From Bdellovibrionia bacterium (GTDB taxonomy: Bacteria > Bdellovibrionota > UBA1018), in the NCBI GenBank assembly GCA_040399745.1, contig JBBARP010000008.1, positions 4,133-68,132 of the forward strand: a stretch of 64,000 nt of DNA. The letters are read 5' to 3'. Numbering within the stretch: position 1 is the stretch's first letter; every line of letters begins with the position of its first letter. Of this stretch, positions 51,610 to 53,716 are shown in pieces. Position numbers and translations under genes: made by a program. The notes beneath the pieces are model-generated. The model made no database searches. It was not told where the DNA came from and saw nothing but the letters and a program-made list of their open reading frames with translations.

Positions 51610-52623
51610 TTACCGAAGTCGTGGCTTTCCTAAGTTCGCAATCGGAGAGAACTTTTCATCGCCCGTCAGTTTTGCTCTGAGCCTCTGCCAGGACAAGTCC
51701 CGGATCGTGCGGCTATCGAAAGTGAGGTCGAAGAAGCGCGGATAGACGGCTAGGAAATCATCGAGCCGAAGGGTGAAAGCTGCGATGTCGGGCTGAATGC
51801 CCACGCGGTAAGGCGAAAAAGGAATGTCGTGAGAAAGGTAGATGGCTTTCACTAATGCGTCCGTAATGGCAGCACTGCCGCGCTGAAACGGCATCGCGTG
51901 CGCAAGCCACCAGTGCATTTCGGCAGCAGCGCGAATCACTTCGGATGGGGAAGTGTCGCGGTCGACCGCGCGATCAAAAAGATGTTCTGCATGGCGAAGG
52001 ATGGGCTCGATCTGAGTGCCAGGAGGGTGAACCCAGCGTCCCGGCAAGTTGCCTTTGGGCATGTAATGGGTGAGGAGCACCGGCTCGGCGTGACCGGGGA
52101 CGCGCATCTCCATCGGTGGTGGTGCGTAGTCGTCGCCGACGAGTGAAGCCGCCAGTTCTTGGCCGAAGGCGTACTTATCGGTCATTCGCGAGGTTTCGGA
52201 TAAGCGGGGATCAAAAGTGCGCCAACTCCCAAACGGGTCGGATTCGGAAGCGCTCATCGCACTCGCCGCTTGGCTGCGTAGAGTAGCTAGCGCACTGAGA
52301 GCATTCCGAAAACGAAAGTGGGGATCGCTCTTCAGACGCTCAGAAATCCTTTGCGTTGCTTTCCAAAATTGCTCTCGAAAAACCGAATCGGCCGAGTAGC
52401 CCGGAGAGCGGATTTGGAGAGTGAAAGGGGCAGTCTCTGCATTCAAGCTTCCCTGGCCGAGCGGGCTTTTGGGTTGAGCGGCCTCAAGGGCGAGGGGAAT
52501 CGCAAGCTCGCCCCGTAGGCAGCGCTCAGTGCTTTCGCTGGCAATCGTAAAAATGGGCCACGCGGTACCCATCCAAAAACAAACGGCAAAGCGAAGAAGG
52601 GAAATGTGGTGACTTCGGCGCAC
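51610..52623 (-). CDS. secreted protein, paralog family A (HWWxAHAMPFxRGSAxITDAL block), member 2 of 2
   Basis: Proposed GTG start at 52623 gives a signal peptide (RRSHHISLLRFAVCFWMGTAWPIFTIASES) 4 nt after the upstream stop. Track start 52812 would overlap the upstream gene by 185 nt. Highly conserved block EMHWWLAHAMPFQRGSAAITDALVKAIYLSH shared with the upstream paralog. Confidence 0.5.
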   Translation of the reverse strand: MRRSHHISLLRFAVCFWMGTAWPIFTIASESTERCLRGELAIPLALEAAQPKSPLGQGSLNAETAPFTLQIRSPGYSADSVFREQFWKATQRISERLKSDPHFRFRNALSALATLRSQAASAMSASESDPFGSWRTFDPRLSETSRMTDKYAFGQELAASLVGDDYAPPPMEMRVPGHAEPVLLTHYMPKGNLPGRWVHPPGTQIEPILRHAEHLFDRAVDRDTSPSEVIRAAAEMHWWLAHAMPFQRGSAAITDALVKAIYLSHDIPFSPYRVGIQPDIAAFTLRLDDFLAVYPRFFDLTFDSRTIRDLSWQRLRAKLTGDEKFSPIANLGKPRLR

Positions 52624-52627
52624 GGAT

Positions 52628-53716
52628 TTATTTTTCCGGATCGGGTTCGTGCAGCCGCAATTGCCTGGAGACGCGAGAGTACTTTTCGTCGTCCGGAGAG
52701 ACGGTGATGTCGAGCCAGCTGTCGTCGTAGACGTCAGAGTGCTTGAAGTTTCGATCAAAGAGTTTCGGGTAGACGCTGAGGAAATCGGGCAACGACAAAG
52801 TGTAAGCCACAATGTCGGGCTGAATGCCTGCGCGGTACGGGCCGAACTCGATTCCGTGGGCTAGGTAAATGGCTTTGGTGAGGGCATCCGTGATCGAAGC
52901 GCTCCCGCGACGAAACGGCATGGCGTGCGCCATCCACCAGTGAATTTCTGCGACGTTTCGGACCACCACAGCGGTCGAGGCTCCGGGCGCAAGCGCTCGT
53001 TTGTAGAGGGTCTCGACATGCTGAAGGATGGGGCGAATCGCTGAGCCTTCGGTGTGGATGAAGCGCCCCGGACGGATGTTCCTGGGAACATAGTAGGTGA
53101 GAACGACCGAAGTGTCGGTTCCTGGAATATCGACCGAAAGAGGCGGGGCTCCGTAAGCGTGATCGAGTAGCCCTACCGCCAGTTCTTGGCTTGCGCCGTA
53201 TTTTGCGTCGTTTCGAGGGGTCGAGTAGCGCTCGGGGTCGGTGTCGCGACGAACACCGAAAGTGTAATCCTCGGGATCCTGGGTCTTTCTTGCGATTCCG
53301 GCCCTTACTTTTCCCAGACTGTGCAGTACGTCCAGAAGTTTGGGAGGCTTCTTGTCCATGAGCAAGAAACCTAAGTTCCAAGTGGCGTCCCACATCAGCT
53401 GCTGGAAGGTGGGGTCGACCTGAGTTTTGGGAGCGCGAATTTGAAGAGTCGCTTTCCCGATATTCGGGTCGTAACTGCCGTATCCTAAAGCGCTTCGGTA
53501 GGGGCCGGCCGATTCGATGGCTTGTCGAATGGCGATTTCTCCGCGCAGACAAGATCTCGGATCGTCGTGGTCCGAAGCGGGGGACGAAAGCGGAAGGAGG
53601 CTCAAGGCCAGGGTCAAAAGACCCGCAAGCCGAACCCAGCGCTTGGTTTGAAGTGTGCTCCCTGCCGCCACCACGGGCGACTCTTTAACTTGAATAACGC
53701 GCCGCGAAAAGCCCAA
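52628..53716 (-). CDS. secreted protein, paralog family A, member 1 of 2
   Basis: N-terminal SRRVIQV plus hydrophobic stretch (possible Sec/Tat-type signal). Conserved blocks CLRGE-AI, LQIR-P, KYGASQELA, PGR-IH, and EIHWWMAHAMPFRRGSASITDALTKAIYLAH. Confidence 0.5.
   Translation of the reverse strand: MGFSRRVIQVKESPVVAAGSTLQTKRWVRLAGLLTLALSLLPLSSPASDHDDPRSCLRGEIAIRQAIESAGPYRSALGYGSYDPNIGKATLQIRAPKTQVDPTFQQLMWDATWNLGFLLMDKKPPKLLDVLHSLGKVRAGIARKTQDPEDYTFGVRRDTDPERYSTPRNDAKYGASQELAVGLLDHAYGAPPLSVDIPGTDTSVVLTYYVPRNIRPGRFIHTEGSAIRPILQHVETLYKRALAPGASTAVVVRNVAEIHWWMAHAMPFRRGSASITDALTKAIYLAHGIEFGPYRAGIQPDIVAYTLSLPDFLSVYPKLFDRNFKHSDVYDDSWLDITVSPDDEKYSRVSRQLRLHEPDPEK

Follow-up and report, generated by a model that had tools for sequence, protein, structure and literature searches.

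Two adjacent genes in a 64-kb stretch of the genome of a Bdellovibrionia bacterium (GenBank assembly GCA_040399745.1, contig JBBARP010000008.1, positions 4,133 to 68,132 of the forward strand; hereafter the window, with coordinates counted from its first nucleotide) encode two paralogs that belong to the AvrB/AvrC/XopAH family and lie in tandem. This family is the AvrB branch of the Fido superfamily, which comprises Fic, Doc and AvrB, AvrB being its third founding member. The two genes are P2 (52628-53674, minus strand, GTG start chosen by gene callers, 348 amino acids) and P1 (51610-52623, minus strand, GTG start, 337 amino acids). A first-pass annotation had pointed to a 29-residue block shared by the two proteins, and we find that this block is the catalytic core of the AvrB-type Fido fold. 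The proteins are new, divergent members of the family, with a motif and a fold that have already been described (Pfam family PF05394 and the Fido literature); their export signal and their host are both unusual for the family. Taking the analysis as a whole, we consider it likely that P1 and P2 are exported AvrB-type protein O-glycosyltransferases that would use a nucleoside diphosphate (NDP)-sugar of the rhamnose type, and that they would act as effectors or toxins. P2 residues are numbered throughout on the open reading frame (ORF) as it stands in the ORF list (52628-53716, TTG start, 362 amino acids); 14 is subtracted for the 348-residue protein.

The block stood out both between the paralogs and across the family. 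In P2 it covers H259-H287 (HWWMAHAMPFRRGSASITDALTKAIYLAH; 52856-52942, minus strand) and in P1, with the same anatomy, H237-H265 (HWWLAHAMPFQRGSAAITDALVKAIYLSH; 51829-51915, minus strand), so that the interval 51829-52942 given by the first-pass annotation marks the outer edges of the two copies. The copies were identical at 24 of 29 positions (83%), compared to 44% identity across 296 residues of the two proteins (BLASTP, E 4e-84), confirming that two paralogs with a nearly identical block lie there. This was the highest-identity 29-residue window in the whole pairwise alignment, and 24 of 29 was reached in 0.055% of 20,000 shuffles of the identity pattern. It was also the most conserved 29-residue window in 143 family members (2.7 bits per column versus a mean of 1.36). 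Further blocks that had been listed as conserved, C-LRGE-AI, KY..QELA and PGR..H....I.PIL.H.E.L, were found in both proteins.

Both proteins matched the AvrB family and its structures. The first-pass annotation could not place them in any family; they matched PF05394 (AvrB_AvrC) at 88.6 bits for P1 (E 5.9e-25) and 104.3 bits for P2 (E 1e-29), against a cutoff of 23.2, with the match spanning profile positions 218-326 only. Scores with NCBIfam model NF041403 (XopAH/AvrB) were 97.9 and 103.6 bits, and the match was limited to the C-terminal 106 residues. The significant matches among Protein Data Bank (PDB) sequences were AvrB entries only (phmmer, E 3.6e-17 for P2 and 1.5e-13 for P1): 1NH1, 2NUD/2NUN, 8TWO/8TWS/8TXF and 8TWJ, which include the 2024 complexes with uridine diphosphate (UDP)-rhamnose and RIN4. 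All of these sequence matches were confined to the last 105-110 residues, and a profile of the two paralogs aligned to AvrB by hhalign (probability 98.7%) likewise covered the C-terminal 108 columns only, with 38% identity there.

The homology to AvrB is full-length and is not limited to the C-terminal third. The N-terminal homology was invisible to hhalign with the paralogs only, and a deeper profile and a structural model were therefore needed. A profile built from 28 relatives, leaving out four AvrB/XopAH-like rows (P0011, P0035, P0062 and P0111), scored 133 bits against AvrB over residues 59-318 and still matched when only the N-terminal half of AvrB was used (E 1.9e-10). An AlphaFold2 model of P2 made from a 32-sequence alignment had a predicted local distance difference test score (pLDDT) of 79, above 90 in the core, and a predicted template modelling (TM) score of 0.79. 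The six best Foldseek matches of this model in the PDB were all AvrB (E 2.4e-10 to 7e-9), with TM-scores of 0.63-0.69 normalised by AvrB over 288-306 columns. AnkX, a Mycobacterium marinum Fic protein, Bep8 and others followed (E 6e-4 to 5e-2, probability 0.9-1.0). The first-pass annotation had suggested that the block might be divergent and Fido-like; this holds at the level of the fold, where Pfam, PDB and Foldseek all lead to AvrB, and fails for the register in which the motif had been read.

The block falls on the AvrB active-site loop and its flanking helices. It aligned without gaps to AvrB residues 255-283 (the AvrB sequence used agreed with every residue identity in the published work and with the PDB alignment). 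In the Fido arrangement a loop lies between two central helices (PMC2686095), and in the P2 block HWWMAHA closes helix a3, MPFRRG forms the Fido loop and SASITDALTKAIYLAH makes up helix a4. The corresponding elements of the P2 model were a helix at residues 248-265 (..EIHWWMAHA), a loop at 266-271 (MPFRRG) and a helix at 272-286 (SASITDALTKAIYLA), with pLDDT of 94-98 in the block region. The motif had been read with a two-residue insertion that put His264 at the position of the Fic histidine. The gap-free alignment instead lays HPFx[DE]GN[GK]R on M266-P267-F268-R269-R270-G271-S272-A273-S274. The loop then lacks the catalytic histidine and has Arg in place of [DE] and Ser in place of Asn, just what Kinch et al. 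2009 (PMC2686095) noted for AvrB. The first-pass annotation had named, as the finding that would count against it, a known fold whose active site does not involve the block; the active site of AvrB includes it.

Four residues of this loop are nearly invariant. The loop, identified by hmmalign mapping and family conservation, runs from M266 to A273 in P2 (52898-52921, minus strand) and, by the same mapping, from M244 to A251 in P1 (51871-51894, minus strand; R248, G249, S250, A251). Among the 143 relatives Arg was kept in 140, Gly in 143, Ser or Thr in 141 and Ala in 137. Across the block as a whole the residues conserved family-wide were H259, W260, P267, R270, G271, S272, A273, D277 (D or E) and K281 (K or R). 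Two other histidines were not: position 264 was His in 67 relatives, Gln in 47 and Asn in 23, and position 287 was Arg in 42, His in 37 and Lys in 27.

Residues that contact the sugar nucleotide in AvrB have equivalents in both paralogs. In AvrB, R266 and G267 contact the beta-phosphate of UDP-rhamnose, A269 and A270 contact phosphate and rhamnose O2'', R99 contacts the alpha-phosphate, and T125, Y131 and D297 contact the sugar, D297 at rhamnose O3'' (PMC10866546). In P2 and P1, respectively, R99 corresponds to R138 and R116, T125 to T166 and S145 (Thr to Ser in P1), Y131 to Y173 and Y151, H217 to H221 and H199, P263 to P267 and P245, R266-A269 to R270-A273 and R248-A251, Y65 to F104 and F82, and N62 to D101 and D79. 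AvrB D297 corresponds to D301 in P2 (codon 52814-52816, minus strand), which is Asp in 138 of the 143 family members, and by hmmalign mapping to D279 in P1 (codon 51787-51789, minus strand). With like-for-like substitutions counted, the mapped positions were kept in 78-100% of the relatives; when a single residue was counted, the R99 position was the least conserved (89 of 124). Among AvrB mutants, R266A abolished rhamnosylation of RIN4, whereas D297A did so in one assay and left a strongly reduced level in another (PMC10866546).

P1 and P2 probably leave the cytoplasm by cleavable Sec-type signal peptides. The predicted signal peptide of P2 ends before SD (MVAAGSTLQTKRWVRLAGLLTLALSLLPLSSPA; 53576-53674, minus strand) and that of P1 before SE (MRRSHHISLLRFAVCFWMGTAWPIFTIA; 52540-52623, minus strand), both read from the sequence and hydropathy. 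Both leaders have a basic n-region, a hydrophobic core of 14-20 residues (14 in P2) and a small-x-small junction (..SPA before SD in P2, with small residues at -3 and -1, and ..TIA before SE in P1). In the model the P2 leader stayed below a pLDDT of 50. The P1 leader was strongly divergent between strains yet hydrophobic, and the mature N-terminus ASE.TERC was conserved. Family members from plant pathogens begin MGC[IV]SSK, unlike P1 and P2, and neither P1 nor P2 has the non-hydrophobic or MGC-type N-terminus of a type III effector. From these Sec-type leaders we infer export of the proteins, not injection through a type III system.

The starts of both genes bear on these leaders. For P2 we rejected the TTG at 53716 because it sits in the T-tail of the upstream terminator, whereas an AAAGAG motif precedes the GTG at 53674 by 7 nt; gene callers also chose the 348-residue form on identical or nearly identical metagenome contigs. 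The GTG of P1 lies 4 nt past the P2 stop codon, and some gene callers start P1 at M18 instead, giving 320 residues. A lipoprotein signal was also rejected, there being no lipobox before Cys56 of P2 or Cys35 of P1. Each of these cysteines (about 53549-53551 and 52519-52521 in the window) is the sole cysteine of its mature protein, lies within a C-L-R-G-E motif a few residues past the predicted cleavage site and has a counterpart in a similar place in many relatives of the signal-peptide type. The motif resembles C43-L44-I45-G46 of AvrB and is one candidate for its equivalent.

The AvrB catalytic core is found far beyond plant pathogens. A word-indexed protein search at first gave just two close relatives and one XopAH. 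Few exact 5-mers are common to the family, and an exhaustive HMMER search was therefore needed; it gave 952 cluster representatives at 50% identity, many aligned over profile positions of approximately 57-311. Patterns derived from the paralogs found no relative on genome contigs, and the DNA pattern for WWxAxAMPxxRGSA found the strictest motif holders only; the GTDB representatives apparently do not include the species from which the window comes. About 17 of the 143 relatives have hydrophobic leaders. Asp at the Fido F position did not occur in any of these 17 and goes instead with acylation-type N-termini. Tandem triplets of AvrB-like genes with signal-peptide-like hydrophobic N-termini were present in metagenome-assembled genomes (MAGs) of Chlamydiae (L010, 258-2091; L017, 3408-6076; L022, 1779-4414), with the loop variants MPY, MPF and TPC. 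In P0025 (835 amino acids) the AvrB-like domain is fused to a PAAR motif, an architecture that implies type VI delivery. The domain also occurs in giant proteins: P0015 (5620 amino acids, six matched stretches), P0027 (4547), P0046 (4282) and P0018 (1866). Pfam recognised nothing beyond the AvrB-like domain in P0027 and P0018. A marine Reinekea sp. MAG (L024, 1503-2564) encodes an AvrB-clade protein with an MGC acylation N-terminus and an MPD loop, which suggests a eukaryotic host target beyond the classical plant pathogens. In the searchable literature we found no paper treating AvrB-family proteins outside plant pathogens; every paper found regards them as type III effectors of such pathogens, and the breadth of the family may be under-appreciated.

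These findings suggest how P1 and P2 would work. The helix that follows the loop (A-x-I-T-D-A-L-x-K...) aims its N-terminus at the donor diphosphate. From the contacts in AvrB, the beta-phosphate of the NDP-sugar would be bound by Arg270/248, Gly271/249 and the Ala273/251 backbone (P2/P1) and the alpha-phosphate by Arg138/116, and Thr166/Ser145, Tyr173/151, Ala273/251 and Asp301/279 would hold the sugar. A substrate peptide would dock on the beta-hairpin and upper lobe (His221/199), and its Ser or Thr hydroxyl would attack C1 of the sugar. The expected product is a metal-independent protein O-glycosylation, most likely rhamnosylation from deoxythymidine diphosphate (dTDP)- or UDP-rhamnose. This is the chemistry of the AvrB branch, known for AvrB and AvrC only: AvrB O-rhamnosylates its target from UDP- or dTDP-rhamnose without divalent cations (PMC10866546), and AvrC is a promiscuous rhamnosyltransferase (bioRxiv 10.64898/2026.08.26.747443).

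We think that P1 and P2 are most likely secreted effectors or toxins that would modify proteins of prey or host cells. They would sit idle in the periplasm of the producer for want of a donor. To our knowledge, NDP-sugars occur only in the cytoplasm. Since the family also occurs elsewhere as effectors and toxins (type III, PAAR/type VI and giant proteins), action in another cell is favoured. Inertness in the producer's own periplasm would parallel the argument that AvrB depends on a donor that its producer lacks (PMC10866546). The shortened upper lobe points to targets other than RIN4.

Several observations weigh against this picture. The Sec signal would put the enzymes where NDP-sugars are absent, so that a further delivery step is required, and no secretion-system family was matched by Pfam among the 34 ORFs scanned in the window. 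The signal peptides themselves were judged by eye and by a hydropathy heuristic only, and a P1 start at M18 would weaken its leader. Membership in the XopAH/AvrB type III effector subfamily was rejected, the NF041403 scores falling below its cutoff of 220. Identity between P2 and AvrB was approximately 22% over the whole fold. The upper lobe is approximately 38 residues shorter than that of AvrB (48 residues from Y173 to H221 in P2, versus 86 from Y131 to H217). Position 268 is Phe, as in Fic proteins, where AvrB has Asp264. AvrB residues 43-46, with the ribose contact G46, fell in insert states of the profile, so that C56-L57-R58-G59 and the strand L91-I93 are both candidates for the G46 region and neither alignment is confident.

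P2 and P1 are followed by two further co-oriented genes. B1 (50331-51569, minus strand, 412 amino acids) lies downstream of P1, and the cluster ends with B2 (48948-50273, minus strand, 441 amino acids by the gene-caller start), which is weakly paralogous to B1. The upstream edge is marked by a strong hairpin resembling an intrinsic terminator (17-bp stem and T run; 53721-53757, minus strand) in the interval between the glutamate dehydrogenase (GDH) gene and P2; the sequence upstream of the cluster showed no promoter of the sigma-70 type. The gene order GDH, P2, P1, B1, B2 and a convergent NtrC-type regulator was kept in related metagenome contigs. B1 and B2 share their layout: the N-terminus resembles a signal peptide, and both have a KNPM..LGC..AN motif, a region rich in beta structure and a long coiled coil. 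Nothing meaningful matched them in Pfam, NCBIfam or PDB. A structure model of B1 made with the B1 and B2 sequences only had a pLDDT of 41 and was unusable for structural search. PADLOC found nothing for P1, P2 or B2, and its match of B1 to LmuB (E 6e-4, in the coiled-coil region) was weak and judged not meaningful. The link of B1 and B2 to P1 and P2 is drawn from synteny only.

P1 and P2 both evolve under purifying selection. Compared with orthologues in related metagenome contigs, the ratio of nonsynonymous (dN) to synonymous (dS) substitution rates was 0.07-0.09 for P2 and 0.11-0.16 for P1. Between strains, dS of P1 and P2 was 3-8 times that of the adjacent GDH gene (53780-55090): 0.15-0.32 versus 0.04 at locus L002, and 0.86-0.87 versus 0.27 at locus L030. 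The difference suggests that the cluster has recombined or been imported, or else that codon use in GDH is strongly biased. At the protein level, identity to contig L002 was 100% for GDH, 98.7% for NtrC, 97.4% for P2, 90.5% for P1, 88.9% for B2 and 55.4% for B1. The ends of B1 were conserved and its centre was replaced, despite the 100% identical flanking GDH, and contig L028 has a second B1-like gene where B2 would be. The P2-P1-B1-B2 cluster thus behaves as a fast-evolving, recombining island, which fits a role in interaction or conflict without identifying that role.

The rest of the window is that of an ordinary diderm chromosome, with BamA, LpxD, LpxB, a MurC-like ligase, flagellin and two-component systems. 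Its ribosomal protein S1 was 85-88% identical to proteins named from MAGs of Oligoflexia, Bdellovibrionota and Bdellovibrionia. The only secretion-related Pfam match was the flagellin gene (43545-44378). Elsewhere in the window are a eukaryote-type Ser/Thr protein kinase of 747 amino acids (27891-30134, plus strand), a SpoIIE/PP2C-type phosphatase (32798-33943, plus strand) and two large proteins carrying ricin-type lectin and fn3 domains (59656-63350, minus strand). Scans of all 64 kb gave no tRNA genes and, at the gathering score, no Rfam families. GC skew was positive across the window, and cumulative skew rose monotonically.

The neighbouring genes offer another place for the same fold and active site to work, the producer's own envelope. 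There, once exported by Sec, P1 and P2 would glycosylate B1, B2 or other envelope proteins, and a diphosphate-linked donor within reach of the periplasm, such as an undecaprenyl-diphosphate sugar, would replace the NDP-sugar. The two transferase genes and the two genes for secreted coiled-coil proteins form one co-oriented cluster with short gaps, kept in related strains; all four products have signal-peptide-like N-termini; and the centre of B1 is swapped between strains, as happens for surface-exposed proteins. Fido proteins can also bind isoprenoid diphosphates, as reported for FicD with farnesyl diphosphate (PDB 9YZ5; PMC12974487). However, use of a lipid-linked donor has no precedent in known AvrB-family enzymes, and P1 and P2 retain the nucleotide-contact positions (AvrB N62 as D101 and Y65 as F104 in P2). 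No B-family genes lay beside AvrB-like genes in the 20 other genomes examined. B-family genes were found just in very close relatives, and their association with P1 and P2 may be lineage-specific chance. We therefore regard action in the own envelope, the main rival and attractive for its operon, as unlikely. In a broader version, AvrB-type Fido proteins with signal peptides, seen in Bdellovibrionota-like contigs and as tandem triplets in Chlamydiae MAGs, would form a separate branch working beyond the inner membrane, and P1 and P2 would glycosylate B1, B2 or other envelope proteins from a lipid-diphosphate sugar. This appears quite unlikely to us; if true, it would add to bacterial protein O-glycosylation a new kind of system, built on the Fido fold.

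The first-pass annotation had proposed a divergent Fic motif with the first histidine of the block as a catalytic residue, and activities such as AMPylation, phosphocholination or dephosphorylation. AnkX and other Fic domains were the next structural matches after AvrB, Phe268 is as in HPF, and AvrB can bind ADP (PDB 2NUN). But Met266 occupies the position of the Fic histidine, and His264 is one of three residues (H, Q or N) found there in the family. The [DE] of the motif is Arg, its Asn is Ser, and its second Arg is Asp or Glu (PMC2686095). Pfam Fic gave no match for P1 or P2 even at E<=1. AvrB and AvrC, with the same loop, are rhamnosyltransferases, and no phosphorylation of RIN4 by AvrB was detected (PMC10866546; bioRxiv 10.64898/2026.08.26.747443). 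The chemistry known for this branch, metal-free O-rhamnosylation, is thus different from the activities that had been guessed, and we consider a Fic-type activity very unlikely.

It is highly improbable that P1 and P2 are non-catalytic, with the Fido fold serving as a peptide-binding module in a secreted adaptor or decoy and the block conserved for structural reasons. His259, Trp260 and Trp261 do lie in a helix and are probably packed in the core in the model, and AvrB was for years known just as a RIN4-binding protein. The mapped UDP-rhamnose contact residues, on the other hand, are kept in both paralogs and are the most conserved positions of the 143 relatives, and dN/dS is low; pseudoenzymes usually lose such residues. 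The suggestion that H..H..D..H forms a metal-binding site is hardly credible: both paralogs do have two or three His and one Asp within 29 residues, but of the candidate ligands just H259 and D277 (D or E) are conserved in the relatives and His264 and His287 are not, the candidates in the P2 model are spread over two helices and a loop and face different ways, and AvrB catalysis needs no divalent cation (PMC10866546).

Exported AvrB-type glycosyltransferases would extend a theme best known from plant disease. AvrB is reportedly a classic effector that went for decades without a known activity until it was shown in 2024 to be a Fido-fold protein rhamnosyltransferase. The motif in P1 and P2 is real and functional, yet it is already captured by PF05394. 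The catalytic core itself is spread far more widely than the plant pathogens, with 952 clusters, a PAAR fusion, giant proteins and a minority with Sec signals in Bdellovibrionota-like and Chlamydiae genomes. Should the exported members be active glycosyltransferases, rhamnosylation of proteins, or a modification akin to it, may serve outside plant disease as a general weapon or as a way to modify the envelope; P1 and P2, being small, would be tractable proteins on which to test this.

Compared with known systems, P1 and P2 are closest in structure to AvrB of Pseudomonas syringae, an O-rhamnosyltransferase that acts on Thr166 of RIN4. They have a common fold with it over approximately 290-300 alignment columns, they have the loop P-x-x-R-G-S-A and the preceding HWW helix, and they keep the equivalents of R99, T125 (Ser in P1), Y131, H217, R266, G267, S268, A269 and D297. 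AvrB has an N-terminus for type III secretion with an MGC acylation motif and comes from a plant pathogen, whereas P1 and P2 have Sec-type signal peptides and a host in the Bdellovibrionota. Since their upper lobe is shorter, recognition of the kind seen with RIN4 is not to be assumed. The best named relatives in sequence were XopAH of Xanthomonas and AvrC of P. syringae (P0003-P0011, 37-44% identical over approximately 30% of the query). XopAH has the exact string HWWMAHAMP in common with the pair; it differs in its length of 400-525 amino acids, its long, non-hydrophobic N-terminal extension and its MPD in place of MPF.

The AvrB-like proteins of the signal-peptide type from metagenomes and MAGs (P0016, P0022, P0031, P0065 and the Chlamydiae triplets) resemble P1 and P2 in architecture. 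They are approximately 270-370 amino acids long, have a hydrophobic leader, an aromatic residue at the Fido F position and the same conserved residues, and often occur in tandem. They were just 25-33% identical to P2, and no B-family neighbours were present at the loci examined. Fic and Doc proteins (AnkX, VopS and FicD) have in common with P1 and P2 the superfamily fold, with a diphosphate-binding loop between two central helices and a beta-hairpin on which the substrate peptide docks. In contrast to these proteins, P1 and P2 have no catalytic histidine, and Arg and Ser stand where the Fic motif has its acidic residue and its Asn. Fic and Doc proteins transfer nucleoside monophosphates or phosphocholine, whereas the activity shown for the AvrB branch is metal-free transfer of a sugar.

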